IMG/VR virus record: IMGVR_UViG_2684623151_000005
Origin: an uncultured virus (IMG/VR IMGVR_UViG_2684623151_000005)
Taxonomy: Duplodnaviria; Heunggongvirae; Uroviricota; Caudoviricetes
Direction: 5' to 3' (one strand)
Length of the DNA: 64,000 nucleotides
In this document: positions 2,929 through 61,826 of the stretch, piece after piece
How the letters are laid out: each line of letters starts with the position of its first letter
How positions within the stretch are numbered: the stretch's first letter is position 1
Made by a program: the position numbers and the translations under genes
The notes under the pieces: model-generated
Databases searched by the model: none
The model's input: only the letters and a program-made list of their open reading frames with translations
Told to the model about the DNA's origin: nothing

Positions 2929-2948
2929 AAAGAGATTAGATGATTGCC

Positions 2949-3230: not shown

Positions 3231-3235
3231 ATTTA

Positions 3236-3787: not shown

Positions 3788-3799
3788 CTTTTATATTAA

Positions 3800-4366: not shown

Positions 4367-4487
4367 ATTCTCCCCTCCTAAAATAAAATGAATTTTCCTA
4401 TTTATATTTAATATATTGTATATCTTTGAATATCTTTTAATTCAAATTTATAAAAAAAAGATAAGTAGAAATTACTTATCTTCAAAG

Positions 4488-5204: not shown

Positions 5205-5291
5205 TATATAAACTCTCCCTTCCTGTTAAATAATTAAAAAATACCTAAATCTATATTAATTTAATATATAGATTTAGGTATTTAGATATAA

Positions 5292-5522: not shown

Positions 5523-5528
5523 AGCTAA

Positions 5529-6107: not shown

Positions 6108-6131
6108 CTCCTTATTTTAATCTTTAATGTC

Positions 6132-6175
6132 ATTATATGTTTTTATTTGACATTAGTCAAAAAATAAAATATAAT
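6132..6175. promoter_or_regulatory. Back-to-back sigma-A promoters sharing one TTGAC-N4-GTCAA palindrome (6147-6160)
   Basis: Plus: TTGACA(6147)-17-TATAAT(6170). Minus: TTGACT(6160)-17-TATAAT(6137). Confidence 0.85.
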
Positions 6176-6216
6176 TAAATTATTTTTTTAATTAATAAAG
6201 AAAGTTGGTATAAATA

Positions 6217-16479: not shown

Positions 16480-16530
16480 TTTTTCTCCTTTCAATTTAAA
16501 GTAATTTCGATATCATTATATTATTCTACT

Positions 16531-33600: not shown

Positions 33601-36354
33601 TTAAATAATCTTTTTATTTATATTCTTTTTATTTATTTTATCTTCATCTTTAACTTCATTATTTTTTTTATTTTGAGTTTTATTAGAATCTGTTTTGTTA
33701 TTTTTAGAATCAATATTATTTTTTACTCTTTTGTTATCATTACTATTCGATATATCTTTCTTTTGATTATCTTTATCTACAGTCTTGCTTTTTTCATCTT
33801 CTTTATTTTTAATATTTTCTTCTTGGGCTTTCTTCTTACTTTCTTCAGCTTTTCTCTTAGCCTCTTCAGCCTTTATTTTAGCTTCTTCTTCAGCTCTTTT
33901 TTTAGCTTCTTCCTCTTCTTTTTTCTTTTGCTCTAATCTTAAAACTACATTATATTGACTATTTAAATTATATCTAAAATCATCCAATTTAGCTTTTGCT
34001 CCATCATAAGCAGAAGGTTTCTTAATCTCATTTAACAATGTTTCTAAATTATTCAAATTATTAAATATATCATTGTACTTAGCTTTATCTTCTAATGAAG
34101 TACCTGTATTATCCAAATCAGAACAAGACTTATTTAATTCATCATTAAACTTATCTTCTCTAATCTTTTCTTCTTCATCTGTTAAATGATACATTGTTCT
34201 ATATACTAACTCTCTTAACCTTTGATTTTGCACATAATTTTCTTTATTTATTCTATCATTTTCATTTTCTTTTCTTGCTGATATTATATTCTTTAAATTA
34301 TATGCTGTATCATACAGTTTTCCATTCTTCTCATAAACAGAACTTGGCTTAGTAAACTCTATTTCTTCTAATCCATCATGTAAATATTCCATCCAATCTC
34401 TCCATATATGCCCTGGTGTTCCTCCACCAAACATATCAGGTTGTGGTTTAGGTATATCATCACCAACCCAAACAACAGTAGTATAATAAGGCGTATATCC
34501 TGCAAACCAAACATCTTTAGCACCATCAGTTGTACCTGTTTTACCTGCTTGAGATTCACCATAATTTCTCATTTTAACTCTATATCCAGTTGCCCCAGGA
34601 TTATTAATTACTGACTGCAAACAAGATGTAGCAAGGTAACTCGCTCCACTATCATACACTTTAGTTTCTTCAAAATTATTTTTGTATATTGTTTTCCCAT
34701 TGGTATCTGTAATTTCTACTACATTAGTAGGCTCTATAAACTCTCCATTTCTTTCTAAGGTAGAATAAGCACTTGCCATTTCAACATTAGTAGTTCCTTT
34801 TGTAAATCCTCCTATACCTATTATAGAAGTTTTATCTTCAGGCATAAGGTATCTAAACTCCATATCCCTTAAATAATTTAATGAATTTTCAACACCTACA
34901 AAATCTACAAGTCTTACAGCTATTGTATTTATAGATTGCTCTAATCCTTCTCTTAAAGTAACATATCCCTTGTATGAGTGATACCAGTTTACAGGACCAT
35001 TTTTTATAGGTGCATCATTATATAGTGTAGAGGGAACATATCCTCTTTCAAACGCAGGTGTATAACTAACTACAGGTTTTATAATAGAACCTGGTTGTCT
35101 CGGAGATAAGAAAGCTCTATTATAAGTAGAATCACTTCTTCCACCAACTATTGCAACGACTTCTCCTGTTTTATTATCTATAGTTACAACAGAAGCTTGT
35201 TTTTTATATCTTCCTTCATCATCTTTTAATGAGTATGGTTTCATCTGACTATCAACTATATTTTGAAGTTTTTTTTGCAATTCAGCGTCAATACAAGTCT
35301 TTACGGAATATCCTCCACTTTTGAACTTAGCTTGTGCTACTTCATAAAGCTTATTATAATTCTCATAGTATTCTTGTCTATCCTTATTATCTTTAAATTG
35401 ATATCTAAACACAAACCCTTCACTTTTAAGTATTTCATCTACTGCATTTCTTACAGCAAAGCTAATAGCATAAGGTAGATTAGCATCTATACTTTTATCA
35501 TCTGTTATATCTAACTTAATTTCTGATTTAATAGCTTCATCATATTGTTCAGATGAAATTTTATTTAGATTCTTCATTTGAACTAATATTATATTTCTTC
35601 TTTTAAGCGTATTTTCAATATTAGTTTTTGGATTGTACAAATATGGATTATTAGGTATTCCTGCTAAGAATGCACTTTCTGACAAAGTTAAATCTTTTGC
35701 AGATTTATTAAAGTAATATTGAGAAGCACTCTCTATTCCGTAGCATCCATTAGCAAAATATATATTGTTTAAATAAAATTCTAATATCTCGCTCTTTGTA
35801 AATTTTTCTTCTAATTCTTTTGCTATTACAATTTCTTCTACTTTTCTTGAAAGAGTTCTATTCATTGTTAAAAATACATTCTTGCTTAACTGTTGAGTTA
35901 TAGTAGAACCACCTTGTACATTACCACCATGACTTGTTAAGTATGTCTTTAAAGCTCTAAATATACCTTTATAATCAATAGCTCCATGTTCATAAAATCT
36001 TTCATCCTCTATTGAAATGAAAGCATCTTTAACATAATCGCTTACATCATCTGACTTTACATATTTATATTTAGCACTTTTGAACTCCTTAATTATATTA
36101 TCATCTTTATCATATAATATTGTTGGATTCTTACTATCAAATGTTTTAACAGAAACATCCTTTAGTTTATTTTGCCCTTCAACTATATATCCTTGAATTA
36201 TTGGATTATATTTATCGTAAATTCTATAAGCTCCATATATTCCTAATCCTACAGCACACATATTAATTCCTAATATACTTTTAATAAGAATAGAATGTTT
36301 CTTATTTTTAGCTTTTTTAGATTTACTTTTTTTATTAGATTTTGAATACTTCAA
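33601..36354 (-). CDS. Class A penicillin-binding protein (transglycosylase plus transpeptidase)
   Basis: EDERFYEHGAID, GGSTITQQL, RKVEE; SIIK, SIN and KTG motifs intact; charged C-terminal tail. Confidence 0.95.
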   Translation of the reverse strand: MKYSKSNKKSKSKKAKNKKHSILIKSILGINMCAVGLGIYGAYRIYDKYNPIIQGYIVEGQNKLKDVSVKTFDSKNPTILYDKDDNIIKEFKSAKYKYVKSDDVSDYVKDAFISIEDERFYEHGAIDYKGIFRALKTYLTSHGGNVQGGSTITQQLSKNVFLTMNRTLSRKVEEIVIAKELEEKFTKSEILEFYLNNIYFANGCYGIESASQYYFNKSAKDLTLSESAFLAGIPNNPYLYNPKTNIENTLKRRNIILVQMKNLNKISSEQYDEAIKSEIKLDITDDKSIDANLPYAISFAVRNAVDEILKSEGFVFRYQFKDNKDRQEYYENYNKLYEVAQAKFKSGGYSVKTCIDAELQKKLQNIVDSQMKPYSLKDDEGRYKKQASVVTIDNKTGEVVAIVGGRSDSTYNRAFLSPRQPGSIIKPVVSYTPAFERGYVPSTLYNDAPIKNGPVNWYHSYKGYVTLREGLEQSINTIAVRLVDFVGVENSLNYLRDMEFRYLMPEDKTSIIGIGGFTKGTTNVEMASAYSTLERNGEFIEPTNVVEITDTNGKTIYKNNFEETKVYDSGASYLATSCLQSVINNPGATGYRVKMRNYGESQAGKTGTTDGAKDVWFAGYTPYYTTVVWVGDDIPKPQPDMFGGGTPGHIWRDWMEYLHDGLEEIEFTKPSSVYEKNGKLYDTAYNLKNIISARKENENDRINKENYVQNQRLRELVYRTMYHLTDEEEKIREDKFNDELNKSCSDLDNTGTSLEDKAKYNDIFNNLNNLETLLNEIKKPSAYDGAKAKLDDFRYNLNSQYNVVLRLEQKKKEEEEAKKRAEEEAKIKAEEAKRKAEESKKKAQEENIKNKEDEKSKTVDKDNQKKDISNSNDNKRVKNNIDSKNNKTDSNKTQNKKNNEVKDEDKINKKNINKKII

Positions 36355-37652: not shown

Positions 37653-38696
37653 TTATTTATTAAAATATTCATTTAAAACTCTATTTGCACGATTTATATC
37701 TAAATCTTTATCACTATATTTTTTATCTTTATATATAAAGCTATCAAGAGCCTCACCATTCTGTTTCAGGTCAGTTAATATAACCCAACCCTTTTTGCCA
37801 TAAATTTGTCCCTTAGAAATTGAATTAATAGGTATTTGTAATGTATCTAAATTTTTATTATCCATATTATAAATAGTATAAGCTAAATTAAGAGCTTTCA
37901 TAAAACTTATATCAGTATCAATATTATCCCATAATTCTCTTGCTATCTTAGGGTACTTTACAACACTAATACCTTTCATTTTCTCTATTAACTTATTCAA
38001 TACTATTCTTTGTCTTTCTGTTCTTGAATAATCTCCTCCAACATTATAACGTATTCTTACATAAGATAAAGCTTGAGTTCCATTTAATAGCTGAACACCA
38101 GGATTCTCAACAAATTTAACATTTTTTCTCTCTATGGCATTATCATTTATATATTTATTAAGTTCTTTTATTTCATTTTTTTTGACATCTACATCTACGC
38201 CTTGAAGATAATCGACTATATCTACAAAACTTTGAAAATTGATAACAGCATAATAATCTATCTTCAAATTTAAATTTTTCTCTATTGTATCTTTAAGTAA
38301 GCCTATTCCCCCATATGCAAATGCTGAATTTATTTTTTGACTTCCATGATTTCTTATAGGTATATATGTATCTCTCATTATTGATGTTATTTTCACTTTT
38401 TTTAGATTAGAATCTATTGTTAATATCATAATACTATCAGTTCTACCATTTGATTTATCCCAATATCTAAAATCAGCACCACATAATAATATATTAGTTA
38501 TTCCTTTCACTTCTTTATAATTGAAATGCTCCTCTTCAGAAGATTTATCCGAGCTTTTATTACTATAATTAATGTTAGAGCTACATAACAAACTCCTATC
38601 TTCCTTTTTTTGTGTTAAATAAATAAAACAGCCTATTGTTGTACAAAATATCAATAATAACAAGAAAATAAGAATTTTTATTACTCTTAATTTCAA
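37653..38696 (-). CDS. LCP (LytR-CpsA-Psr) family glycopolymer transferase
   Basis: N-terminal TM; GRTDSIM, SIMRDT, KINSAFAYGG, YVRIR, GDYSRTERQ. Confidence 0.93.
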   Translation of the reverse strand: MKLRVIKILIFLLLLIFCTTIGCFIYLTQKKEDRSLLCSSNINYSNKSSDKSSEEEHFNYKEVKGITNILLCGADFRYWDKSNGRTDSIMILTIDSNLKKVKITSIMRDTYIPIRNHGSQKINSAFAYGGIGLLKDTIEKNLNLKIDYYAVINFQSFVDIVDYLQGVDVDVKKNEIKELNKYINDNAIERKNVKFVENPGVQLLNGTQALSYVRIRYNVGGDYSRTERQRIVLNKLIEKMKGISVVKYPKIARELWDNIDTDISFMKALNLAYTIYNMDNKNLDTLQIPINSISKGQIYGKKGWVILTDLKQNGEALDSFIYKDKKYSDKDLDINRANRVLNEYFNK

Positions 38697-39707: not shown

Positions 39708-40265
39708 CTAAACTGTTTTCTTTTGAGAAACATCTAAATAACATTTACCCAAAATATCTTTTGATATATCTAAGCATCCAACAGAAGCATTACGACTATC
39801 TAAACTATTATTTCTATTGTCACCCATAACAAAAACTTTTCCTTTTGGTATAATTTCAGAAACAAATTCAGTTATATTCATTGGCTCTTTAATATAATCC
39901 TCATTTATCTCTGTTCCATTCAAATATACTTTTCCGTTCTCTATTAGTATTTTATCTCCTGGTAAACCTATAACTCTTTTTATTAGTAATCTATCACCAT
40001 TATCTAAACAACTTTTCGTAACAACAATATCACCATGATTTATTTTTGAAAGTCTATTCATAAGCATATAGTCTGAATTATTTAAGGTGTTTTCCATACT
40101 ATGACCATTGACTTTTACTGGCATTGCTACTGCTCTTATAGTAAGTCCTATACCAAGTCCAATTAAGATAACGATTAAGTTTTCAGCAATTATTTTCTTC
40201 CAGCTTTTTTCTTTAGCTTCTAAATTACTTTCATTATTTTTTTTCATTAGTTTTCTTAAAAGCAT
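39708..40265 (-). CDS. lepB: Signal peptidase I
   Basis: GHSMENTL, IKRVIGLPGD, GDNRNNSLDSR. Confidence 0.95.
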   Translation of the reverse strand: MLLRKLMKKNNESNLEAKEKSWKKIIAENLIVILIGLGIGLTIRAVAMPVKVNGHSMENTLNNSDYMLMNRLSKINHGDIVVTKSCLDNGDRLLIKRVIGLPGDKILIENGKVYLNGTEINEDYIKEPMNITEFVSEIIPKGKVFVMGDNRNNSLDSRNASVGCLDISKDILGKCYLDVSQKKTV

Positions 40266-41727: not shown

Positions 41728-41756
41728 TTGACAATTGTCAAATAAGTTAATATAAT
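41728..41756 (+). promoter_or_regulatory. Consensus sigma-A promoter of the tRNA array, overlapped by palindrome TTGACAATTGTCAA
   Basis: TTGACA(41728)-17-TATAAT(41751). Confidence 0.85.
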
Positions 41757-41980: not shown

Positions 41981-42055
41981 TGATGTGTAGCCTAATGGTC
42001 AGGCAGTTGGCTGTTAACCAACCTTACGAGGGTTCAATTCCCTCCACATCAGCCA
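41981..42055 (+). tRNA. tRNA-Asn(GTT)
   Basis: Cloverleaf TGATGTG/CACATCA, loop CTGTTAA, encoded CCA. Confidence 0.9.
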
Positions 42056-42128
42056 CGTTCATTACATCAGTTGGATAGATGGGCTATGTTTAAATAGCAA
42101 GTCATAGGTTCAAGTCCTATATGAACAT
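42056..42128 (+). tRNA. Atypical/pseudo tRNA with 6-nt anticodon loop GTTTAA
   Basis: GTTCAT/ATGAAC acceptor, CATC/GATG D-stem, GCTAT/ATAGC stem, ATAGG-TTCAAGT-CCTAT T-arm; no CCA. Confidence 0.65.
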
Positions 42129-42560
42129 ACTAATTATTCTTTTTGTTAATCTTATTAAGTTAAGATTTTATACATATATTGTTTATTGTGTTCAATAAAC
42201 AGTTTTAAACTTTATAATTAGGGAAATTACATGATATTAGGAGTCCCCCTGTTTGTAATTTAATCCTCGGATGTTACATTAGGTTGTTTATCAACAATAG
42301 GGAGTGCAAGGCGTTAAATATATATTAAATCTAATCTTCATCTATTTTACATTTTTTAGTAGTTTGTTAATTGTTTTTTCATAATAAGATGAATTTTTTT
42401 GACTATTATTAGTTTTAATTATATTTAGAATAGTTAATTTGCAAGAGTAATAAAAAATAAAAATAGTACTCGCTCGAAATAACTTGCGTAGGGATAGTGG
42501 ACATGTAACAGCAACTTGTTTTGAAATATACGAGGTTTGGGTTTGTGAGTTGCATAACAT

Positions 42561-42648
42561 GGAGAGTTGGTAGAGTGGTCGATTACATCAGTCTTGAAAA
42601 CTGAAGGTGGTAAAACATCCAAGGGTTCGAATCCCTTACTCTCCTCCA
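42561..42648 (+). tRNA. tRNA-Ser(TGA)
   Basis: GGAGAGT acceptor, loop CTTGAAA, long variable arm, CCA. Confidence 0.92.
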
Positions 42649-42895
42649 TTTTAGTAACATAATAAAGTAGAGGCATTTTAGCTGTACTACAACAAAAGAA
42701 GCATTTTAGCTATCTTTAAATTATAGTTGCTATTGAATGTTGACATATAAAGCAGTTCGTATATGCTGTTTTTTATTGAGTTCTCGCAGGGTTTTAATGC
42801 ATTACCACAAATACGATAGGCTATAAATTGTAAATAAAATAGCTGAAAGAAAAGCATATTGATTAAGGGTTGGCTATTGTGTCATATAGTAGCTA

Positions 42896-42966
42896 AAGTA
42901 AGTAGTTTAATTAAAACATCATAGATACCATATGAAGAATGTGAGTTAAAATCTCACCTTACACCT
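42896..42966 (+). tRNA. Degenerate tRNA-Val(TAC)-like
   Basis: GTAAG/CTTAC, TCATA-GATACCA-TATGA, GTGAG-TTAAAAT-CTCAC; lacks U33, TTC and D-loop GG. Confidence 0.5.
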
Positions 42967-42972
42967 TTATAT

Positions 42973-43048
42973 GCTGATGTAGCTCAACTGGTAGAGCAAT
43001 TGACTTGTAATCAATAGGTTGTGGGTTCAAGTCCCACCGTCAGCTCCA
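42973..43048 (+). tRNA. tRNA-Thr(TGT)
   Basis: Canonical cloverleaf, loop CTTGTAA, CCA. Confidence 0.95.
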
Positions 43049-43083
43049 TTCCTTCTATGTTAAATAATTTTTTGAATATCTTA

Positions 43084-43170
43084 GGGAAGTTATTCTGTAG
43101 TTGGTAGCAGGGTAGACTGTAAATCTATTACCGTAAGGTTCGGGGTGTTCGACTCACCCACTTCCCACCA
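43084..43170 (+). tRNA. tRNA-Tyr(GTA)
   Basis: Loop CTGTAAA, long variable arm, CCA. Confidence 0.9.
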
Positions 43171-43174
43171 TTAT

Positions 43175-43244
43175 GAAGAAGTAGCTTAATGAAAGCCCTA
43201 TACCTTTAATATAGTAGATGTAAGTTCAAATCTTACCTTCTTCA
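43175..43244 (+). tRNA. Atypical tRNA-Lys(TTT)
   Basis: GAAGAAG/CTTCTTC, CTATA-CCTTTAA-TATAG (C33), short D-loop, no CCA. Confidence 0.6.
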
Positions 43245-43253
43245 ATTTAATAT

Positions 43254-43329
43254 GGAGATATAGTTCAACGGTCAGAGCAACTGGCTCATAACCAGTAAGT
43301 TGTAGGTTCGAATCCTACTATCTCCACCA
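43254..43329 (+). tRNA. tRNA-CAT (elongator Met or Ile2)
   Basis: Loop CTCATAA, canonical T-arm, CCA. Confidence 0.9.
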
Positions 43330-43360
43330 TTTAAATTTTATAATAAACAAAAAAATATAT

Positions 43361-43454
43361 GGAGAGTTGGTAGAGTGGTTTAATACAGCAGTTTGCTAAA
43401 CTGTCAGTCATTTTAAATAGTGGCTCAAGGGTTCAAATCCCTTACTCTCCTCCA
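43361..43454 (+). tRNA. tRNA-Ser(GCT)
   Basis: Loop TTGCTAA, long variable arm, CCA. Confidence 0.92.
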
Positions 43455-43473
43455 TTCATCATTAATATTATAT

Positions 43474-43548
43474 GGGAAGTTAGCTTAACTGGAAAAGCAT
43501 TCGGTTGAAGCCCGAAGGAAGTGAGTTCAAGTCTTGCACTTCCCACCA
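43474..43548 (+). tRNA. tRNA-Phe(GAA)
   Basis: TTCGG-TTGAAGC-CCGAA, GGGAAGT/ACTTCCC, CCA. Confidence 0.88.
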
Positions 43549-43775
43549 AAAACATAAGTTTAAATATAAAATACTATTTTTGACTTTTATATAAAAGTTA
43601 AACTCCTGAAAGTATTCCTAAATAGTATTAATATTTAATTTATGTTTTCTACGTTGATGTTTTCATTTTTTATTATGTCTTTGATTTTATTTGATTTTAT
43701 TTTACTTTAAAGGTTGTTTATAATAATCTTTGAAATTATAGGTGAGGGGTAATAAGCCCTTCATCTATATATCAT

Positions 43776-43860
43776 GTAGGTATGATGGAATTGGTAGACA
43801 TGTTTGACTCAAAATCAAATGATTAAATTCGTGAGGGTTCGACTCCCTCTACCTACACCA
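43776..43860 (+). tRNA. tRNA-Leu(CAA)
   Basis: Loop CTCAAAA, variable arm, CCA. Confidence 0.9.
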
Positions 43861-43945
43861 CCACGACATAATAAAACTATATAATATAATACAATATAAT
43901 ATAATACAATTACCGATTAAATCACCATATTTAATCGGTAACTAT

Positions 43946-44019
43946 GGAAAGTTAGCTTAATGTGGGCAAAGCGTTTAATTAAAGATTAAAAGAAGTGAGT
44001 TCAAATCTTACACTTTCCT
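43946..44019 (+). tRNA. Divergent tRNA-Phe paralog with anticodon AAA
   Basis: GGAAAGT/ACTTTCC, TTTAA-TTAAAGA-TTAAA; clearly related to 43474-43548; no CCA. Confidence 0.6.
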
Positions 44020-44027
44020 TGATATAT

Positions 44028-44104
44028 AGCAGGATGTAGCAATAGGTAGCTTTCAAGATTCATTATCTTTGAGGTTGAGGGTTCGAATCCCTCTCCTGCA
44101 CCCA
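44028..44104 (+). tRNA. Atypical initiator-like tRNA-Met(CAT)
   Basis: 1:72 mismatch, GCAGGA/TCCTGC, loop TTCATTA, lacks the three G-C anticodon-stem pairs, CCA. Confidence 0.7.
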
Positions 44105-44112
44105 TTTTATAT

Positions 44113-44440
44113 GATTTAGTAGTTTAAAAGAAAATTTAGTAATCTAATAAAAAACATCAATAAACCTCTAAAATCAACTATAAAATTTAAAAATGTATAA
44201 ATATATATTAATTAAATAAAAACAGTATTTCAGTTACCATATCATATACTGTTTAATTACAATTAACTATATGTAAACATTTTAATTTTATAATTAGTTT
44301 TATAATGATTATATCGTTATAAACTTTTAGAAGTATATTGATGTAATTGATTTAGAATAAAAATTAGTATTAGAAAAAACATACTTAGTGTGGTAACTGA
44401 ATAAAAGTATAAGTAGGTTCGAATCCTACCTAAATCACCA
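44113..44440 (+). ncRNA. 328-nt tRNA-shaped structured RNA of unknown class
   Basis: GATTTAG/CTAAATC acceptor, perfect T-arm, ACCA end, nested long helices and 13-bp loop-loop complementarity. Confidence 0.65.
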
Positions 44441-44588
44441 TTTTTTAGCCTATAGAATAAAAACTTTGATTTAAAATTATCTAAAATTATTAGATAAGCA
44501 TAATACATGGAAGATTCAGGTTGTAAGGCTTTTTTTAAATGTATTATGTATATTTATTATTAATTCTAATGCAAGGGGATGTTTTTTT

Positions 44589-44735
44589 ATGGATGAAATT
44601 AGATATATACTTGATAAAGAAACTATCCGAGCTATGTATAGAATTGCTTCTAATAATAAATCTAAAAGAAAAAAAAGAAGTCGTTCTAAACTTAGAAAGT
44701 ATAAAGATTCTAATTGTAAAAATAATGAGGATTAA
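44589..44735 (+). CDS. 48-aa basic peptide inside the tRNA array
   Basis: AAGGGG RBS; MDEIRYILDKETIRAMYRIASNNKSKRKKRSRSKLRKYKDSNCKNNED. Confidence 0.5.
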   Translation: MDEIRYILDKETIRAMYRIASNNKSKRKKRSRSKLRKYKDSNCKNNED

Positions 44736-44756
44736 TAAGCCTCATTATTTTAATTT

Positions 44757-44830
44757 GAGGGCGTAGTTAAATGGTATAACAAAGGTCTCCAAAACCTTAA
44801 TTGGAAGTTCGATTCTTCTCGCCTTTGCCA
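44757..44830 (+). tRNA. tRNA-Trp(CCA)
   Basis: AAGGT-CTCCAAA-ACCTT, T-arm TTCGATT, GCCA end. Confidence 0.9.
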
Positions 44831-44890: not shown

Positions 44891-45946
44891 TTAAACAGTT
44901 TGATTTTGTTTTTTCTTTTGAGAATTTTCATGAATTTTCAATATCATATCTAATTGTTCTATTGAATAAAATGTTTTTCTAAAATCAATTTTATTCAATA
45001 AATTATAAGCTTTAAGATATCCATATATCTTAACAAGCAACTCTTCTCCATACTCCAAGAAATCATCAAACAAACCATTATCTAATAGATTAGCAGAACA
45101 TTCCAAGTCATTTATTACTTCATTAACAAAGTAGTTACCTGAAATATTTCTTATTTTTAGATTTTTTATATTATTGATAAATGATGATTTACTCTTACCA
45201 CGAAGGCAACCTTTTTCATCAATAATTTTCAATGTATTGTCTAATACATCGAAAGTTTTGGATAATATAGTACGTATAATATCTTCAATACAATTAAGTG
45301 CATCATTTCTTTTCGAAGCTTCAAGTTCTTCAAAAATATCTAAATCAAAGTAACTCTTATTTTCCAATACTGGAAAGGCACTTAATGACATTTCCATATA
45401 GAAACTTTCTTTATATTTTTCTTTCGATGGAATATCATCTATAATTCCTTGATATATATTAGGGTCTTCACATCCCATCTTAAAAAGACTATCTTTAAGT
45501 CTTTTTTTAAAATTGCAGATTATATTATCCCAATCATTAAATATTTCATCTCTAATTGAGATATACCTTTTCTTTTCTCTATTAAAAACCTCTTTAAAAT
45601 CTCTAAAATCAGGAATTGTTAAGAATTGACCATCATAACCTATAGCCCTTTCTTTAAGTTCCTTTCTTAAATTAGCCTCAATACTTTTTAATTTTTTATT
45701 CATTTGAAGTCCTACATAATCAAAAGCTCCATTGATAAAATAGTCATCCATGAATTTAAGTACATTTTCATCGTTAACTCCAAATGCCTTTACATTTATC
45801 TTAGTATTTCCTCTAATTCGACCTACATGAACCTTAACAAGTAATCCTGATTTTGTTAAAAGGAGTCCTAAATTTTCAAGTTTAACCCCCTGTTCATTTA
45901 TGCCATTTAATAGTTCCTTAGTTTTTTCTTCATTTACATTTAACAT
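44891..45946 (-). CDS. Hypothetical protein (weak DUF3150-like resemblance)
   Basis: Long helical ORF; start moved to ATG 45946 with AAGGAG RBS. Confidence 0.55.
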   Translation of the reverse strand: MLNVNEEKTKELLNGINEQGVKLENLGLLLTKSGLLVKVHVGRIRGNTKINVKAFGVNDENVLKFMDDYFINGAFDYVGLQMNKKLKSIEANLRKELKERAIGYDGQFLTIPDFRDFKEVFNREKKRYISIRDEIFNDWDNIICNFKKRLKDSLFKMGCEDPNIYQGIIDDIPSKEKYKESFYMEMSLSAFPVLENKSYFDLDIFEELEASKRNDALNCIEDIIRTILSKTFDVLDNTLKIIDEKGCLRGKSKSSFINNIKNLKIRNISGNYFVNEVINDLECSANLLDNGLFDDFLEYGEELLVKIYGYLKAYNLLNKIDFRKTFYSIEQLDMILKIHENSQKKKQNQTV

Positions 45947-46059
45947 AATAACGCTCCTTAAATAAAAAAATTTACCTATCAAAATTATATATCACTAACA
46001 AATAAATAAGAATAATTATTCAATAAAATTAACAAAAAGGGATGTACCCTTTATGTTAA

Positions 46060-47112
46060 TTATTCTTCACTATTAGAAAAAGACTTTAAACATATCTTTT
46101 TCCCAAAAAATTCAACAAAATCAGCATAACCATTAGTTCTTTCTAAAAACTCTACATCAGCCAATTTTCTATCCATATAGGACATTAGACCTAATACATA
46201 AGCCTCCTTTGTTTTTGGTAGAACAAAAGAATCTACATTTTCAGAACTCGCTATCTTTCCAAATGTTGAAGCAATCATATGCTCTAACAACATTTTGTCA
46301 GCATCAATCAACTTTGTAGTTTTAGAAAACTCTTCAATCAAAATCTTGTTTGTAAGATATTTTGTATCAAACATTTCTCCTACATCCGTTTTGCTTATAC
46401 TTCCATTATTATTCATTGAGTAAATATTTATCTTACCAACTTCTAATAAAATAGATGCAGTTACAAGAGCCTCTTCATTTAGGTTAGTATTAGTATCATC
46501 TATATTGAAGTTCATAGCCTTATATATGTTGGCTATGGCCTTACAAAGTATAGTAAGTCTTATTGTTCTTGCTAATAATCCTGATTTGAATGAATAACCT
46601 GCTTTTTCAGATGCAGGGGCTTCGAAGAATTTACTTTTTACATCCTCTCTTTTAAATACATTAATTAATAACTCTCTAAATCCAGGATGTTTAATTGAAT
46701 TAAGAATTTGTCTAAATCTATTTTTTAATTCAATTTCATTTACGACACCAAAAGTATCATCTCTTTCAGTCTTTTCTTCGATTTTCTCTACAAACACACT
46801 ATAGTATTTGTTTTTAGAATCAGGAATGCTTTTTACTCTTAAGTAAACTTCACCATAGATATGACCTGGTACTAAACCTGTATATAATTTTTCATCATCC
46901 ATTATGGTAGCATATATTTTGCCAGATGAATCTTCAACAGAAATTGATTTATATCTTTTTCCATTTACCTTTGACACCCTATAATTATTTATGTATATAT
47001 CTCCTTTTATAATGGCAAAATCACCTTTTTCTAACTTAGAGATTTTCTTTTTTATAGGGTTATTAGTTTTTTCGTTTTCCTTGTCTACTTTAACATTGTT
47101 ATTTGTTGTCAT
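46060..47112 (-). CDS. YhaM/Cbf1-like OB-fold plus HD-domain protein with degenerate active site
   Basis: VEDSSGKIYA OB fold; APASEK...GLLART, ILLEVGK (HD replaced by LE), LEHMIAST, PKTKEA. Confidence 0.75.
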   Translation of the reverse strand: MTTNNNVKVDKENEKTNNPIKKKISKLEKGDFAIIKGDIYINNYRVSKVNGKRYKSISVEDSSGKIYATIMDDEKLYTGLVPGHIYGEVYLRVKSIPDSKNKYYSVFVEKIEEKTERDDTFGVVNEIELKNRFRQILNSIKHPGFRELLINVFKREDVKSKFFEAPASEKAGYSFKSGLLARTIRLTILCKAIANIYKAMNFNIDDTNTNLNEEALVTASILLEVGKINIYSMNNNGSISKTDVGEMFDTKYLTNKILIEEFSKTTKLIDADKMLLEHMIASTFGKIASSENVDSFVLPKTKEAYVLGLMSYMDRKLADVEFLERTNGYADFVEFFGKKICLKSFSNSEE

Positions 47113-47241: not shown

Positions 47242-48213
47242 TTATTCATTTTTATAATACAAAAATGAAAATCCATTAAACTTATTCAATTTAGATATTC
47301 TTAAACTACCACCATTCTCTACTGCTCCCTCTAAATTTTGTGATGGTAAATATCTATCTGATTTATACTTAAATACATTTCTATGTCCATGAATTTGATA
47401 GTATCTATCTTCAGTATTATACATAAATAGCTTATCAACCTCTGTATAATCATTTCCTTGACCATTTATAAAGTTAAAGCTATCTACTAAAAAAAACTCT
47501 CTTGGAAGCCCTGTAAGCCCCCCATGCGATACTAATATCTTTTTCCCTAAATATTTATAATATATATGTTCTTTCATTGAATACATAAATTTTGATATAT
47601 CTATTTTATGTATATCTGAATCTACTAATTGCTTACAAGTATTCATAAAACATCTACTAAGATTAGTATAATTATTTTGTGAATAATGCCATAAATTAGT
47701 ATCATGATTTCCCTCTATAAATATTACATTCATCTTATTTCTTATGGATAAACAAAAACGTATTACATCTAAGTTTTCTGCCCCTCTATCAATCAAGTCA
47801 CCTAAAAAAATATATAATGATTTATCATCATAATTTTCATCCCAAAATCTTTTTAATGCCTTATAACAGCCATGTATATCTCCTATGTGATATATATTTT
47901 CATAATTTGAAAAATTATAAACTTCATCTAAATCACTTATTTTATCTATATAAATCACTTTAAACTTATTTACTAATCTGAAGAAAAAATGCTTTTCACA
48001 ATTTTTATAAGCATATATCTTATATCTATATTTATATATAAGCGTAAGCATTTCCTTTGCCATAGCCATATCTAAATCATTTATATTAAGTATCAAAAAC
48101 CTTCCTAAATTCATATTATTTTCAAGATTTGATGTATTATTTTTTTCGATGAAATATTTATTATATTGTTTTTCCTTAAACTCTGTTCTTGTTGTCAACA
48201 ATATCTTTCGCAT
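47242..48213 (-). CDS. Calcineurin-like metallophosphoesterase (Pnkp phosphatase-like)
   Basis: GDIHGC, GDLIDRG, EGNHD, SHGG, QIHGH. Confidence 0.88.
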   Translation of the reverse strand: MRKILLTTRTEFKEKQYNKYFIEKNNTSNLENNMNLGRFLILNINDLDMAMAKEMLTLIYKYRYKIYAYKNCEKHFFFRLVNKFKVIYIDKISDLDEVYNFSNYENIYHIGDIHGCYKALKRFWDENYDDKSLYIFLGDLIDRGAENLDVIRFCLSIRNKMNVIFIEGNHDTNLWHYSQNNYTNLSRCFMNTCKQLVDSDIHKIDISKFMYSMKEHIYYKYLGKKILVSHGGLTGLPREFFLVDSFNFINGQGNDYTEVDKLFMYNTEDRYYQIHGHRNVFKYKSDRYLPSQNLEGAVENGGSLRISKLNKFNGFSFLYYKNE

Positions 48214-53957: not shown

Positions 53958-56351
53958 TTAAAATGTTTCACAGCCTGAACCTAATTCTATATTGAATACT
54001 GATACAACAGTAGATATTTTTATCCTTTTAACTAATTCATTAAACTCTTCAAAACTATCTAAAGTAAACACTTGTAATGGGTCTTGTTGCTTATATGAAG
54101 CTAATTGAGAAGCTTGTTTTATGTGAGTTATTGATTCTAAATACTCCATCCAGTTTAAGTCAACAAAACTTAACAATATACCTCTAACTATTGATGAAAA
54201 CATATATTCATCATAAGATTGTTTTATTAAATTATACTTATCTATTGATTTTTCATACAAATAATGTTCAACTTCTTCTATAGAATTGTTTTTATTATAC
54301 ACATCTAAAACTCTATCAACAGTTACAAAATCCTTATTAAAAAGTAATGGATTTATTTCATCAAGATAATCTATAAATATTTCCTCTATACTTTTATCTA
54401 TATAAGTTTCATCATCTAATTTAAGCCTTAGTGTATGTAATTTTGAAGAAACAACTTCTTTTACCATTTTATCTATAAATTCAACTAAATTATCTGTATC
54501 TAAAACTTCATTTCTTTGAGAATATATTATCTCTCTTTGCTTATTAATAACCCCATCATATTTCATTGTATCTTTTCTGCTTTCAAAGTGCATACCTTCT
54601 ATTCTTTTTTGAGCCTCACGAACTCTTTTAGTAAAGAACTTGTTTTGTATTAACACATCTGATTGACCATTTTTATTAAGTGAATGTTCTAACTTATCCA
54701 ATATTTCAGGACTTGAAAAAACCCTTAGTAAATCATCTTCAAATGAAAGATAGAATATACTTTCGCCAGGGTCTCCCTGTCTCCCTGAACGACCTACCAA
54801 CTGATTGTCTATTCTTCTATTATCAGCCCTTTCAGTTCCTATAACCTTTAGACCACCAAGTTTTTTAACTTCATCATCTATTTTTATATCAGTACCTCTT
54901 CCTGCCATATTAGTCGCTATAGTGACTGCTCCTTTCATTCCTGCCTTTTCTATTATATGAGCCTCTTGTTCATGAAACTTAGCATTCAATACATTGTGAG
55001 GTATATTCTTTCTACTAAGTAATTCAGATAGTTCTTCTGATTTTTCTATACTTGAAGTACCTATAAGAATTGGTTGTCCAGTAGTATGTGTTTCAACTAT
55101 ATCTTTTATAATTGCTTTAACTTTAGCAATTCTACTTGAATATAATTTATCTTCTCTATCTATTCTTTGTATAGGTTTATTGGTTGGTATAACAATGACA
55201 TCTAAATTATAAGTTTCTCTAAACTCTTCTTCTTCAGTTTGAGCTGTCCCAGTCATTCCTGATAATTTTTTATATGATTTAAACAAATTTTGATAAGTTA
55301 TACTTGCCAATGTCTTATTCTCTGATTGTATTCTTACACCTTCTTTAGCTTCTAAAGCTTGATGTAATCCATCAGAATATCTTCTACCTTCAGCAATTCT
55401 TCCAGTAAATTCATCAACTATATATATCTCATTATTTTTAGGCATATAATCAATATCTTTTTTCATATCAAAATTTGCTTTTAATGCTTGACCTACATGA
55501 TGTCTTAAGTCAAAATGCTCTAAATCTGAATAATTATCTATTCCAAAGAATTTCTCTATTTTAGCTACCCCACTTTCAGTTAAGGTAACAGTTCTTTCTT
55601 TTTCATCTACTTTATAATCTTCTTCACTTAATGATTTTACAACAACATCCGTTATCTGATATAAATTTGTAGGTTCGTCTCCCTGGCCACTAATTATAAG
55701 AGGTGTCCTTGCTTCATCTATAAGTATTGAGTCAACTTCATCTACAATAGCAAAATTTAGCCCTCTTTGAACTCTACTTTCTTTTGTTTTCACCATATTA
55801 TCTTTTAAATAATCAAAACCCAACTCATTATTTGTTATGTAAGTTATATCTTTGCTATATGCATCCTTTCTTTCTTGTGGATTTATATTAGATATTACTA
55901 CACCCGTACTAACCCCTAAATAATCATATAATGGCTTCATAAGTTCCCTATCTCTCTCTGCAAGATAGTCATTAACAGTTACTATATGAACTCCCTCTCC
56001 TGTTATTGAATTAAGATAAGCAGGACATACTTCTGTCAATGTTTTACCTTCACCTGTTTTCATTTCGGCTATTCTTCCCTGATGAAGAACTACTCCACCT
56101 ATTAATTGAACATCAAATTGTTTCATTTCCAACACTCTTGAAGAGGCTTCTTTACATACAGCAAAAACTTCAACTAATAACTCTTCAAGTGTCTCACCTT
56201 TTTTATATCTTTCTTTAAACTCTTGAGTTTTAGCTTTTAATTATTCATCACTTAATGATTGCATTTTCTCATCAAGTTTATTTATCTTCTCTACAATTTT
56301 TCTTACTCTTTTGACTTCTCTTTCTGAATAAGATTTGAATAAACCTAACAT
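53958..56351 (-). pseudogene. secA: SecA with in-frame ochre stop at codon 37
   Basis: MLGLFKSYSEREVK...SLSDE*LKAKTQEFKERY continues in frame into MKTGEGKT, VDEVD, TNMAGRGTDI, GRSGRQGDPG; TAA at 56241-56243. Confidence 0.9.
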
Positions 56352-57506: not shown

Positions 57507-58163
57507 CTATATCTCTTCTTCATATTCATAAAATTCTCTTAAAAAGTCTAAAGGTTTATATTTGTCCCCATAAGCATATAGTAATCCTTCTCTTTGAAAA
57601 GTAGTTCTTTTATCATATCCTTTACTTTTAATTGATAAAAGTTCATCTAACTCTTTAAATTTCATAAACTTTCTTTCTTCTTTAGTTACATCATTAGTAT
57701 GTTTTGCATAATATTGTGTTAATACATTTATTGAACAACCTCTTCTATAAAGTATATAAGATTTAATTTTACTTTGCTCTATATTAAACATTCTTGCATC
57801 GAAGTATATAATCTGACTTTTAAAATATTTGTTAAAGTAAAAAAATACTTCTTGAGATATTAATGAAACAATCTTTTGAGTATCAATACTTTTAAACTTT
57901 CTATACAAACTATATGGCTTCAAAAATATTATATTAAATTCATCACTTGATATGTAAACATAACATTGATATTTATTAGATATGTATTCAGCAGTTCTCT
58001 TCATAACATGAGAAAATGTCCATTGTGATTCATCCAATATATTTATCATTTCATTTTTACAAACATTCTTTCCATCAAGTCTTATTACTACAGGCTTACA
58101 TAAGCTTATCTTACTCTTATACTTATTTTCTATCATCTTAAAATAATCAAACCTACTATTCAT
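57507..58163 (-). CDS. Thg1-like tRNA(His) guanylyltransferase / 3'-5' polymerase
   Basis: VVIRLDGKN, YISSDEF, QKIVS, YFDAR. Confidence 0.85.
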   Translation of the reverse strand: MNSRFDYFKMIENKYKSKISLCKPVVIRLDGKNVCKNEMINILDESQWTFSHVMKRTAEYISNKYQCYVYISSDEFNIIFLKPYSLYRKFKSIDTQKIVSLISQEVFFYFNKYFKSQIIYFDARMFNIEQSKIKSYILYRRGCSINVLTQYYAKHTNDVTKEERKFMKFKELDELLSIKSKGYDKRTTFQREGLLYAYGDKYKPLDFLREFYEYEEEI

Positions 58164-58730: not shown

Positions 58731-59021
58731 TTAAAATGGAATATCTCCATTACGATTTTCTTGATTAATATTACTTCCTTGTATTAAATCCCAAGGAATT
58801 AATTGGTTTATTTCTGATAATAATTGATTTATTTGATTTTCTCTATTCTTAAGTTCAACTTCAACTTCTTTTGGGTTTATATCGAATTTAGCTAATTCTT
58901 CATTTTCTTGCTTTAGATTATCTACAAGAACATCCCTTTTAGCTATAGCTTGTTGTCTAATTCCCTTAACCTTTTCTATAGCACTTTCTAACTCCTCTAC
59001 ATTCTTTACATTATTTATCAT
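58731..59021 (-). CDS. Small coiled-coil protein, likely middle piece of the split Rad50, with SSB-like DIPF tail
   Basis: Immediately after the SbcD-SbcC fusion; heptad pattern; ends NGDIPF. Confidence 0.65.
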   Translation of the reverse strand: MINNVKNVEELESAIEKVKGIRQQAIAKRDVLVDNLKQENEELAKFDINPKEVEVELKNRENQINQLLSEINQLIPWDLIQGSNINQENRNGDIPF

Positions 59022-59036
59022 AATACACTCACACCT

Positions 59037-61625
59037 CTACTCTACTAATTTTTTTATAATTCTATCGACTACTTGTTCATTTATATCATGCTTACATATT
59101 GGACATTTATTCTCTTTCAATAATTCATTTTTGAATTTATTAATATTTGTATTTAGCTCTTTATTTTTATTCTCAATAAATTCATCTGCAATAACTAACT
59201 TTTTCTCAATTTTAATCTTATTGTTATATATATTTTTAATATCATTTACCTCTTTATTTAAAGAATCGACTTTAGATATATTATTTTCTAAACTTTCTAA
59301 AATATTAGTTCTTTCTATAATTTTATCAAGCTTACAAAGTTCTTTCTTATCATTTTCTATTTTAAAACCTAAATTAGTTATATTTTCAGCTTTAGATTTA
59401 AAATCTTTATATTCATTGCTAAGATTTACAAAGTTCCTAAATTTATTATTTAAATCATCTACTAATTCAGTTTTTTCTATGATATAGTTCTCTCTTCTTA
59501 TATTATTCTTTAAGTTAGTTACATTATTTGATGTCTTTTTATAAGCATCATACTCTTTTAACAACTCATTATTATCTAATATTAAATCTTTTAATGAGCT
59601 ATATTTTTCTAACAATAGTTTTACATTTGAAGTTCTATCAATAATTAATTTAAAAGATTTCCCTTCCTTTATTATTGATGTTCTCTTACTTTGTATGAAT
59701 TTAATTTTTTCATACTCATCTACAAGAGTTTTTACAAATCTTATTTTCTCTGATACATCATCTATACAATTTGTATCTTCAATTATTTTTTCCATAAGAG
59801 TTATTTCTTTGGTTAGTCTTTGTATTTCATTAACTATTTCTCTTATACTATTAATCTCTTCTTGTAATTTCATTACTTGATTTTGTTTTTCAATAATAAT
59901 GTCCTTAGTTTTATCCAATTCTTCTAAATAATCATATTTATTTATCTCATTTTCAAGACTAAGCTTATCTTCTTTCTTATTTTTAATAGATGCATTTATA
60001 CTTCTCTCTTCTCTTTCATATTTTCTGATAACAGCATCAGCAAAGTGAGTACCATAAATACCACCTATTATTTTTTCTCTTTGAGGAGCTGTATATTTAT
60101 CTCCAATTAGAAACCAACTATCACCTTGTCTTAAAAAATTTAATGGAACTGAAAGGTCCTTATCTATATCTAAAGTATTAAATCCCATCAATTCTTGTAT
60201 TATTGGTAAACCTTTTGTATTAAACTCTTCTACTTTACCAGTATTATTATTTTCAACTATATAGCCATTTTTACCATTAGCTTTACGCTCAACTATTCTT
60301 GTAATTGTATATCCATTAGATAGATATATAGAAACTTCACATCTATCTTTACCGTTTGTTATAAACCTTCTAACATTCTTTTTACTTCTATTCTCTATTA
60401 TAAAGTCAAAAGCTCTTAGAATAGAGGTTTTCCCCTGCCTACTCTCTCCTATTAGAACATTAAGTCCTTCTGAAAAATTAAGTTCAGTATCAACATGTGA
60501 CTGAAAATTTTTCAAAACCATTTTCTGAACATAGTAATTTTCACAGTTTGCATTTGACTTATCCATTTCACTCATTTTTTCTGCTATTTCTTTTACTATT
60601 TCTTCAGTAACTTCCTTAGCTATATTCTTATTATCGGCAATTGAGCTTATAATATCTGATATATCTATACCTTTATTTATCTCTGCTTTTATGACAGTAG
60701 ATTTTATATTTTCGAGATTAGCTTTCCTTTGTACCATTTCTTCGAGTTTACTTCTATCAAGTACATTTTTCCCTGGTTCTGCACTCTTTAAATAAATACT
60801 TTTTATTACAATCCCTTTTTCCTTAGTTATATCTATTAATAAAACTTTAGGTTTTCTTTCTATTTCTTTTAAACTTGCTGATATTCTAAAAGGAGAACCA
60901 GGATTAACAAAATACTTCCCATCAATTTCTTTAAGTTCAAAACCTAAATGGTCATGCCCTGATATTGTTAAATCAGCTTTAGTCTTTTTAGCTATATCTT
61001 CAACAGTTGTATGTCTATATAAATTACCTACAGATTTTTCAACTAACATACCATGAACTATATGAATATGAATATCACCTAATTTTTCTTCAACAATATA
61101 ATCATCTATATTTTCAGGCTTATCCATCCCATTATGATAATGAGTACCTGTAATGGCAATTTTTAATCCATCCTCTGTTTCAAAAAATATTGGATTATCC
61201 TTAGTTGCAAACTTAACAAAACCAATTTCACTCAAAAATTTTATTGAAGTTTTATTTAATGTATTGATATTGTTACCATATATCTCATGATTACCAACAA
61301 CTCCTATTATCGGAACACAATCTTTAATACTATCCAATATTGTATTCATCTGATTTTCATTATTATTCTTTATATTTAATAAGTTGAACATAGTTTCTGA
61401 CAAATCACAGTTCATCCATCTTTTTATAACCTCGGTTATAAATTCAGATTTTGGTGATGGTATTGATAAGAAATCACCTGGCTGTAATATTGCAGTAGCA
61501 TTATATTTTTTTGCTATATCTTTTATCTCTTCAACTTTTTTAATTTTCGTCAACTTAAAATCGTCTTTTCTACTTGAAGGTACTTCTGTATTCTCATGTA
61601 TATCTCCAGTACATACAAATCGCAT
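59037..61625 (-). CDS. SbcD/Mre11 nuclease fused to the N-terminal half of SbcC/Rad50
   Basis: GDIH, PGDF, VGNHE, VHG, SGHDH, NPGS; then LKNFQSH, Walker A GESRQGKT, coiled coil, terminal CPIC hook; AGGAGG RBS before ATG 61625. Confidence 0.9.
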   Translation of the reverse strand: MRFVCTGDIHENTEVPSSRKDDFKLTKIKKVEEIKDIAKKYNATAILQPGDFLSIPSPKSEFITEVIKRWMNCDLSETMFNLLNIKNNNENQMNTILDSIKDCVPIIGVVGNHEIYGNNINTLNKTSIKFLSEIGFVKFATKDNPIFFETEDGLKIAITGTHYHNGMDKPENIDDYIVEEKLGDIHIHIVHGMLVEKSVGNLYRHTTVEDIAKKTKADLTISGHDHLGFELKEIDGKYFVNPGSPFRISASLKEIERKPKVLLIDITKEKGIVIKSIYLKSAEPGKNVLDRSKLEEMVQRKANLENIKSTVIKAEINKGIDISDIISSIADNKNIAKEVTEEIVKEIAEKMSEMDKSNANCENYYVQKMVLKNFQSHVDTELNFSEGLNVLIGESRQGKTSILRAFDFIIENRSKKNVRRFITNGKDRCEVSIYLSNGYTITRIVERKANGKNGYIVENNNTGKVEEFNTKGLPIIQELMGFNTLDIDKDLSVPLNFLRQGDSWFLIGDKYTAPQREKIIGGIYGTHFADAVIRKYEREERSINASIKNKKEDKLSLENEINKYDYLEELDKTKDIIIEKQNQVMKLQEEINSIREIVNEIQRLTKEITLMEKIIEDTNCIDDVSEKIRFVKTLVDEYEKIKFIQSKRTSIIKEGKSFKLIIDRTSNVKLLLEKYSSLKDLILDNNELLKEYDAYKKTSNNVTNLKNNIRRENYIIEKTELVDDLNNKFRNFVNLSNEYKDFKSKAENITNLGFKIENDKKELCKLDKIIERTNILESLENNISKVDSLNKEVNDIKNIYNNKIKIEKKLVIADEFIENKNKELNTNINKFKNELLKENKCPICKHDINEQVVDRIIKKLVE

Positions 61626-61826
61626 AAAAAAAACCTCCTTTTTATCTAATTGATTTGTCAAATTTATATTACATTTTATTTAGACATTTGTCAAATAATA
61701 AAACTTTATTAAATATTATGTTTTTAGGCAACGTTTTCAAATAAATAGTTATAATTTAGACAAGTAAAATCAATAATATAACATAAACATTTAATAGATG
61801 TTTAAATAAATTGTTGAGAGAGGATT

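Follow-up and report, generated by a model that had tools for sequence, protein, structure and literature searches.

A tRNA-type gene split by a 233-nt hairpin in the tRNA array of the Clostridium perfringens plasmid pJFP838A

The locus and its tRNA frame

The DNA analyzed here is a 64,000-nt stretch of an uncultured virus record (IMG/VR IMGVR_UViG_2684623151_000005), which we call the window, and the element under study occupies positions 44113-44440 of it. An earlier note on this DNA had proposed the 328-nt element as a candidate new class of non-coding RNA (ncRNA) with tRNA-like ends. We identified it as a gene of tRNA type that has CUA in place of the anticodon and whose anticodon arm is split between tRNA positions 37 and 38 by a 233-nt hairpin. 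Over window positions 44000-44600, the sequence is 100% identical to that of pJFP838A, a plasmid of Clostridium perfringens JP838 (NZ_CP013615.1, 404,393 bp; window position = record position - 333,049). The plasmid has 24.74% G+C, 490 coding sequences, and 10 tRNAs, and it is termed essentially unique in its description (PMC4747519). The G+C content of the window ranges from 21 to 32%. The locus sits inside a + strand tRNA array (41981-44830) for which ARAGORN at default settings returned 13 tRNAs and 0 transfer-messenger RNA (tmRNA). A promoter that matches the consensus at 12/12 positions lies upstream of the array at 41728-41756, and the genes flanking the array are on the - strand. By inspection of the sequence, most array members encode CCA, and the 5' end of the locus falls 8 nt past the CCA of the tRNA-Met at 44028-44104, a spacing also seen between other members.

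The robust core of the locus is its tRNA frame, with acceptor, D arm, and T arm intact around a large foreign middle (Table 1). What the earlier note had read at the two ends, namely the acceptor, an A-CCA terminus, a perfect T arm, and a D-arm-like start, was all found in place. The 7-bp acceptor stem, the discriminator, and the TTCGAAT-type T loop are canonical for a tRNA (pair probabilities 0.96-0.99), and all 17 nt of the T arm are identical to the T arm of the tRNA-Met at 43254-43329, with the 14-mer they share occurring twice in the plasmid. Other parts depart from the canonical form: the D loop AAAAGA is without G18 G19, the D stem has a pair probability of only about 0.2 in the full-length ensemble, and the 233-nt insert breaks up what would be a 5-bp anticodon stem and 7-nt loop, with a U.U mismatch left in the stem even after removal of the insert in silico.

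The array also contains, on the + strand, a drum RNA (RF02958; 42735-42862) that scored 59.2 bits in Rfam (gathering score 43), and an additional tRNA of 65 nt (42898-42962) that was found by Rfam only (34.3 bits) and is called by ARAGORN when the threshold is lowered to 85%. A tRNA with a 6-nt anticodon loop, GTTTAA (ARAGORN anticodon 'tt'), and a tRNA-Phe with the rare anticodon AAA are located at window positions 42055-42130 and 43946-44019 (+), respectively. Among the spacers, the one between tRNA-Phe(GAA) and tRNA-Leu(CAA) (43549-43775, +) is predicted to fold into an AU-rich hairpin of about 100 nt (43549-43647) and two smaller ones (z -5.3, 0/200 shuffles), and the 430-nt spacer at 42131-42560 showed unremarkable folding (z -0.4).

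tRNA-finder calls and comparison with known introns

The locus was not called by ARAGORN at default settings and is thus missed by default tRNA finding. When introns of up to 400 nt were allowed at a threshold of 95%, positions 44113-44440 were returned as a tRNA(CUA) with a 233-nt intron at 37/38; this model leaves U27.U43 mismatched and the 26 nt of the variable region unpaired, and it was the sole extra call in the window. Over both strands of the 404-kb plasmid, the same mode gave 2 intron calls, the other of which (record position 139317) is far from any tRNA. After joining in silico, the exons pass as an ordinary tRNA, being called tRNA(CUA) up to a threshold of 105%, compared with 100-120% for the 13 array tRNAs and only 85% for the Rfam-detected tRNA stretch mentioned above. 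The earlier note had named membership of a known family, such as intron-containing tRNAs, as a result that would tell against a new RNA class, and these calls amount in part to such a result. The Rfam tRNA model scored 22.9 bits (gathering score 29) and covered 44349-44437 only. The boundaries of the insert, which has AAAAAAC at each end, can shift by 1 nt, and 84 of 8400 in-silico deletions gave some 'tRNA' at the default threshold, with various anticodons (at 105%, 8 did so, 5 of them with CUA), so the junction is not uniquely fixed.

Known intron and RNA classes were searched for by an Rfam scan of 43900-44650 (751 nt, both strands, E<=10) and by inspection. No Intron_gpI match was obtained, in line with the earlier note, in which no group I core had been seen. 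There is no G in 44140-44195, which rules out the U.G pair that P1 would need beside the 5' junction, and at the ARAGORN boundary the insert ends with C (...AAAAAAC), not with the terminal G of a group I intron. Neither domain V/VI nor D1-D4 of group II introns matched at the locus, while Rfam detected a group II intron elsewhere in the window at 14356-15041. Self-cleaving ribozymes and YrlA gave no match at the locus either. The sole match within the locus was thus that of the tRNA model, and a weak match to SNORD11 (E 0.11, - strand) does no more than overlap the 5' edge. As for introns with a bulge-helix-bulge (BHB), no 3-4-3 motif was seen by inspection: TCTA and TAGA can pair, leaving 7-8 unpaired nt on the 3' side and no 5' bulge. 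A search for the EndA splicing endonuclease (PF01974) gave 0 matches in the 404-kb plasmid and positive results in 4 archaea used as a control, and a PF09414 RNA ligase, a Ro/TROVE protein, and a CCA-adding enzyme were likewise not found on the plasmid.

To our knowledge, the interruptions reported to date in bacterial tRNA genes are all self-splicing introns. Group I-interrupted tRNA genes of bacteria and phages (doi 10.1101/2020.01.27.920355) share with our locus an anticodon-loop insert of about 200-250 nt that is hidden from default finders and recovered by the intron mode of ARAGORN, but the locus differs from them in having no Intron_gpI signal, a G-free run of 56 nt after the 5' junction, a terminal C, and a single near-palindromic hairpin, and in lying on a replicon without TAG recoding. 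The likeness to tmRNA, which the earlier note had pointed out and set aside, consists in a tRNA-like acceptor, T arm, and ACCA around a large insert and in a similar overall size; unlike tmRNA, the locus has a real D arm and an anticodon-like loop, and it lacks the G3:U70 pair, position 3 being U and position 70 being A. No call was made by ARAGORN in its tmRNA mode (-m), even at a threshold of 80%, and the Rfam scan gave no tmRNA match.

Taken at face value, the intron-mode call would make the locus a true intron-containing gene for an amber-suppressor tRNA, from which the 233 nt are removed by a non-ribozyme route (e.g., by a hypothetical endonuclease together with the RtcB of the plasmid) to yield a 95-nt, class-II-like tRNA(CUA) with discriminator A73 that would read UAG. 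The placement of CUA between U33 and A37 with the insert at the canonical 37/38 site, and the passing of the joined exons at the default tRNA threshold, agree with this explanation. In the ARAGORN model, the site is also that of the protein-spliced tRNA introns of archaea and eukaryotes (EndA with RtcB, or Trl1/Tpt1), and homologues of both RtcB and Tpt1 are encoded on the plasmid; in contrast to those introns, the insert is above the typical size, it lies in a bacterial host, and neither a 3-4-3 BHB nor a plasmid-encoded EndA accompanies it. The lack of a group I or II core and of a PF09414 ligase on the plasmid, together with the multiplicity of deletions that produce a 'tRNA', also speaks against splicing, and the mature form would retain the U.U mismatch in its anticodon stem, have no G18G19, and carry a 26-nt unpaired variable region. 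Furthermore, TAG is the stop of 51 of the 314 plasmid open reading frames (ORFs) of at least 150 aa, pairs of long in-frame segments split by one stop are as frequent for TAG as for TGA (3 vs 3), and in 0 of the 3 TAG cases did a Pfam domain span the stop. With TAG a common stop and no excess of TAG read-through, nothing indicates that the plasmid needs an amber suppressor, and amber recoding of the plasmid was rejected. Overall, we consider a spliced suppressor tRNA quite unlikely.

Predicted fold and the apical-loop complement

The full 328 nt have a minimum free energy (MFE) of -62.9 kcal/mol (z -5.2 to -5.9), and 0/100 shuffles were as stable. Acceptor stem, T arm, and long hairpin have ensemble pair probabilities of 0.93-1.0. 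The MFE fold recovered the nested helices and the side hairpin that the earlier note had drawn, with pairing at 44143-48/44369-74, 44154-62/44336-44, 44167-73/44325-31, 44179-87/44284-92, 44190-96/44277-83, and 44220-28/44246-54. The second and the last of these, which were the two helices of the main hairpin checked individually, have pair probabilities of 0.81-1.0, and the helix 44143-49/44368-74 is ambiguous (ensemble probability about 0.4). A further hairpin in that drawing, 44381-86/44405-10, is allowed by the sequence, but it has an ensemble probability of only 0.06-0.13. As modelled, the near-palindrome lengthens the anticodon arm to a rod that measures some 60-80 bp and includes a three-way junction.

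The element folds about as well when read from the other strand. The z-scores of the main hairpin are -6.5 (+ strand) and -6.1 (- strand), and the whole element folds to -69.8 kcal/mol on the reverse strand vs -62.9 on the + strand (z -6.3 vs -5.9). Of the 105 MFE pairs of the locus, 99 are Watson-Crick, and G-U pairs are similarly frequent on both strands (6/105 vs 8/111). Mostly Watson-Crick pairing and equal folding of both strands are as expected of a DNA palindrome, and nothing singles out the + strand RNA as the object of selection.

A separate feature is the complementarity between the apical loop of the long arm and TGTGGTAACTGAA in the 'variable region', which the earlier note had interpreted as a kissing interaction. 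The complement indeed comprises 13 bp, including one G-U, between 44229-41 and 44389-401, 11 bp of which are perfect, and the loop-loop duplex has a predicted energy of -19.5 kcal/mol. A perfect 11-bp inverted repeat of any composition occurred in 49/300 shuffles and is not rare in such AT-rich sequence. The loop complement, which contains four G/C pairs, far exceeds every other perfect helix of the element in stability (-14.6 kcal/mol in a test hairpin); a perfect helix as stable was found in 1/300 shuffles, and a complement of at least 11 nt to the apical loop in 8 of 20,000 shuffles of the rest of the element.

These observations bear on a second explanation, in essence that of the earlier note, in which the locus encodes a functional, unspliced ncRNA of about 328 nt that is built on a tRNA scaffold and set free by RNase P together with 3' processing. 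The long arm would bend back at the three-way junction and bring the apical loop into pairing with 44389-401, or pairing would join two molecules head to tail. Such an RNA could serve tRNA-directed enzymes as a decoy or ligand, on a plasmid with many genes for RNA repair and anti-defence. The intact tRNA ends with encoded ACCA, the very stable fold, and the significant loop complement speak for this explanation, and the strand-symmetric hairpin speaks against it. The drum RNA in the same array and the plasmid genes for Tpt1, a Thg1-like protein, a YhaM-like exoribonuclease, a Pnkp-like phosphatase, and RtcB are also consistent with it. Species 1 and 2 RNAs of phage T4 are stable RNAs other than tRNAs that are encoded in the tRNA cluster of the phage, co-transcribed with it, and processed at tRNA-like ends. 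They are much shorter than the locus RNA, and the comparison serves as a lead only.

Repeats and signs of DNA rearrangement

The 5' part of the locus (44113-44157, 45 nt) is imperfectly repeated just before the 3' exon (Table 1). The local alignment of the two copies has a score of 21, which was equalled in 1.6% of 2000 shuffles and in 0.4% of 3000 random window segments. The 9-nt AAAAAACAT is present at both borders of the insert (44149 and 44374), and the 3' end of the gene, TAAATCACCAT, has another copy 513 nt upstream at 43918, being 1 of 5 such 10-mers in the 404 kb. These repeats suggest, at the level of sequence, that the DNA has been rearranged. The 11-bp inverted repeat (44229/44401) and the 9-nt direct repeat do not frame each other in the way that target-site duplications frame the terminal inverted repeats of a transposon.

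The second GATTTAG at 44349, on which the earlier note had based a shorter, 92-nt alternative, exists, but the 92-nt form itself fared poorly: its fold is weak (z -2.0), its acceptor has a pairing probability of 0.02, and ARAGORN made no call even at a threshold of 70%. A third explanation regards the locus as functionless debris of a tandem duplication: a tRNA 5' fragment (44113-44157) and, beyond a spacer hairpin, the decayed remains of a second copy (44349-44440) would give no more than the appearance of a single split gene. The direct repeat, the presence of TGATTTAG twice, the further TAAATCACCAT upstream, and the long hairpins in other array spacers would all be accounted for in this way. 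On the other hand, the second copy is without a D arm and was not recognized as a tRNA at any threshold tried, TGATTTAG is common in the plasmid (53 copies on one strand), and the statistics of the repeat are modest (p about 0.004-0.016). We judge mere debris to be very unlikely.

Search for relatives

Searches at the nucleotide level recovered no second example. The exact 21-mer of T arm plus acceptor had 0 matches in viral contigs and 0 in metagenome contigs, a gapped pattern of two 11-mers had 0 matches in viral contigs, and a degenerate 3'-end pattern in genome contigs matched 1 locus, an ordinary tRNA-Arg of Bacteroidaceae. With blastn, 22 phage records matched the neighbouring tRNAs only, and the 5 plasmid records consisted of the plasmid itself, 3 that matched the neighbouring tRNA-Met only, and 1 with a 55-nt AT-rich match inside the insert. 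Of the 22 public sequencing runs listed, 8 contain at least half of the locus words and several, with word fractions of 0.2-0.95, contain diverged versions, and none of the 22 is an RNA run.

Synteny was examined with the genes downstream of the array. The 363-aa protein encoded at 44891-45982 had no syntenic relatives in viral, genome, or metagenome contigs, the metallophosphoesterase at 47242-48213 had none in viral contigs, and an alignment of the 363-aa protein with two homologues gave no match in viral contigs. In a large protein database, the 363-aa protein matched 3 clusters only, the nearest at about 50% identity; it is helical, belongs to no known family, and has a poor structure model (predicted local distance difference test 62). 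This gene and the YhaM-like gene (44891-47112, - strand) are also direct neighbours on megaplasmids of Clostridioides, Paenibacillus, Brevibacillus, Aneurinibacillus, and Geobacillus, and megaplasmids of Bacillus thuringiensis Bt407 and Jeotgalibacillus matched the 363-aa protein only. The distant Firmicutes megaplasmids that share the gene pair also have tRNA arrays, which contain some over-long tRNA-like genes, for example one of about 109-112 nt on the Brevibacillus plasmid CP139434.1 (positions 2342-2450/2453 of the extracted locus L035; Rfam tRNA 35.9 bits) and one of 128 nt on the Aneurinibacillus plasmid NZ_CP116888.1 (L033, 2139-2266). In both, well-formed acceptor and T arms enclose an enlarged middle, with inserts of tens of nt that are unrelated in sequence to the locus. 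At the syntenic tRNA locus of the 300-kb plasmid of C. difficile BI1, nothing comparable was found past its tRNA-Met.

The over-long genes, such as that of Brevibacillus, lend some weight to the functional ncRNA described above, against which stand their much smaller, sequence-unrelated inserts, the direct repeat, which points to rearrangement, and the lack of any homologue in the collections searched and hence of covariation. We consider a functional, unspliced ncRNA unlikely, although the loop complement favours it. For the earlier note, this means that tRNA-shaped ends, a giant paired insert, and a long-range loop complement have stood up, while the claim of a new ncRNA class is left without comparative support, no homologue or second copy having turned up in the collections searched.

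Origin of the insert and likely product

The insert is not a ribozyme intron; its most likely origin is an insertion or duplication of DNA. The strand-symmetric hairpin and the direct repeat favour such an event at least as much as they favour an RNA shaped by selection. In some bacteria, 23S rRNA genes contain intervening sequences (IVSs), which are AT-rich extended stem-loops at the tips of hairpins and are excised by RNase III. By analogy, the insert resembles these IVSs, since its predicted fold likewise places an extended stem-loop where the tip of a native hairpin would be. The likeness to 23S rRNA IVSs (compare PMC4990558) extends to the AT-rich stem-loop that replaces a native hairpin tip, the location in a stable-RNA gene, the sporadic occurrence, and the lack of a ribozyme core; the difference is that the present locus is a tRNA-type gene, in which excision without ligation would leave a two-piece RNA without an anticodon loop.

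With about even confidence, we interpret the locus as a tRNA-type gene that has received an IVS-like DNA insertion or duplication and whose product would be an RNA of about 328 nt, tRNA-shaped and probably non-decoding. The locus would be transcribed together with the array, and RNase P and 3' processing would trim the tRNA-like ends; the long stem may also be cut by RNase III. The CUA would be buried in a helix, so the RNA presumably does not decode, and the product may be a tRNA that has been disabled or else an RNA of unassigned use on a tRNA scaffold.

Several observations weigh against an origin by plain IVS-like insertion. The loop complement is unexpected from it and unlikely by chance. 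No mobile family is in evidence: within the plasmid, the insert is matched in full at the locus only, followed by a 34-nt AT-rich stretch, and the 11-mer arms are unique. As far as the plasmid goes, this single copy speaks against the miniature inverted-repeat transposable element that the earlier note had kept in mind and against any multi-copy element derived from an insertion sequence. No relatives of the RNA were found in the phage, plasmid, viral, genome, and metagenome searches. When plasmid windows are ranked by a palindrome score, the locus comes 18th, and the windows above it that were folded mostly consist of short, terminator-like hairpins in clusters and not of a single long arm. 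Finally, the tRNA frame is free of decay, with 7/7 acceptor pairs, 5/5 T-stem pairs, and a canonical T loop, and it follows that the RNA may be under selection or that the insertion is recent.

We regard it as rather improbable that the locus makes a working RNA of an undescribed kind, be it a fold-back or dimerizing 328-nt scaffolded RNA or a protein-spliced tRNA for which ligation by RtcB enables amber suppression. If it did, either form would be new for bacteria. More broadly, a large non-ribozyme insert in a tRNA-type gene would be explained by a new, IVS-like mode of disabling or remodelling a stable-RNA gene, by a new tRNA-scaffolded RNA, or by protein-dependent splicing in a bacterium. 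So far the locus is a lone case, akin in kind to interrupted tRNA genes and to IVSs of stable-RNA genes, and its insert matches no known intron or RNA family.

Table 1 Coordinates of the locus features and of the plasmid genes for RNA-end enzymes (window positions unless marked as record positions of NZ_CP013615.1)
Feature	Position	Strand	Remarks
Acceptor 5' strand GATTTAG	44113-44119	+	Pair probability 0.96-0.98 with CTAAATC 44430-36
T8 A9, D arm, position 26	44120-44136	+	Stem GTTT 44122-25/AAAT 44132-35, 6-nt loop AAAAGA (ARAGORN drawing)
Anticodon stem 5' strand TAGTA and loop bases A-T-CTA-A	44137-44147	+	CUA 44144-46 flanked by U33 and A37
Insert, 233 nt	44148-44380	+	ARAGORN 'intron' between positions 37 and 38; AT-rich near-palindrome
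Main long hairpin	44154-44344	+	Predicted stacked helices of 9, 2, 7, 9, 7, 7, 6, and 9 bp with internal loops between
Apical loop, 17 nt	44229-44245	+	44229-41 complementary to 44389-401
Side hairpin, 11 bp, 3-nt loop	44299-44323 (44299-309/44313-23)	+	Forms three-way junction in long arm (MFE fold)
Imperfect direct repeat of 5' part 44113-44157	44340-44382	+	Just before 3' exon; contains second TGATTTAG 44348-55 and second AAAAAACAT 44374-82
Position 38 and anticodon stem 3' strand TACTT	44381-44386	+	U27.U43 mismatch; or 5' strand of local hairpin 44381-86/44405-10
'Variable region', 26 nt	44387-44412	+	No stem of its own; contains TGTGGTAACTGAA (44389-401), partner of apical loop
T arm GTAGG-TTCGAAT-CCTAC	44413-44429	+	Pair probability 0.99
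Acceptor 3' strand 44430-36, discriminator A 44437, encoded CCA 44438-40	44430-44440	+	Sequence and ARAGORN drawing
Tpt1/KptA	5529-6107	-	RNA-end enzyme
YhaM-like HD exoribonuclease	46060-47112	-	RNA-end enzyme
Calcineurin-type metallophosphoesterase	47242-48213	-	Related to phosphatase part of Pnkp and of RNA-ligase fusions
Thg1-like protein	57507-58163	-	RNA-end enzyme
RtcB	Record 300236-301330	-	RNA-end enzyme

Gene context on the plasmid

Enzymes that act on RNA ends are encoded at several places on the plasmid (Table 1). This set is an unusual one. Together with ArdA, an Apyc1-like hydrolase, a NADAR protein, and MazF, they fit a replicon that supplies and repairs tRNAs under attack, although splicing is not shown thereby. 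With its tRNA operon and its RtcB, Tpt1, Thg1-like, YhaM-like, and Pnkp-like enzymes, the plasmid is a good system for the study of plasmid-borne tRNA supply and repair. The genes of defence or anti-defence type form a cluster at 2212-6996 that includes MazF/PemK-like, ArdA, and NADAR proteins, and a metallo-beta-lactamase-fold protein in this cluster has a weak match, under the curated cut-off, to Apyc1 (anti-Pycsar).

Elsewhere in the window, the group II intron (14356-15041, - strand) scored 141 bits for D1-D4 and 64 bits for domain V/VI in Rfam, and no long ORF was seen inside it. It splits a gene for the DNA polymerase III alpha subunit (ORFs 15049-16494 and 11948-14401), such that the PHP domain and the beginning of the NTPase domain are encoded upstream and the rest downstream. 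A fused SbcD-SbcC-like ORF (59037-61661, - strand) ends with a TAG directly after a CPIC zinc-hook-like motif and is followed by 101 further in-frame codons (58734-59036), and this could be a split gene or a case of read-through. Genes of housekeeping or cell-envelope type encode a class A penicillin-binding protein (33601-36354), an LCP protein (37653-38696), signal peptidase I (39708-40265), SecA (53958-56135), and a ribosome hibernation factor (61827-62387), and markers of conjugation or partition are represented by a TraG/TraD-like protein (62608-63987) and an actin-like protein (195-1286). Outside the window, the plasmid carries a CRISPR-associated DevR/Csa2 (Cas7-type) gene at positions 108203-109900 of NZ_CP013615.1 (8203-9897 of the extracted segment L016).

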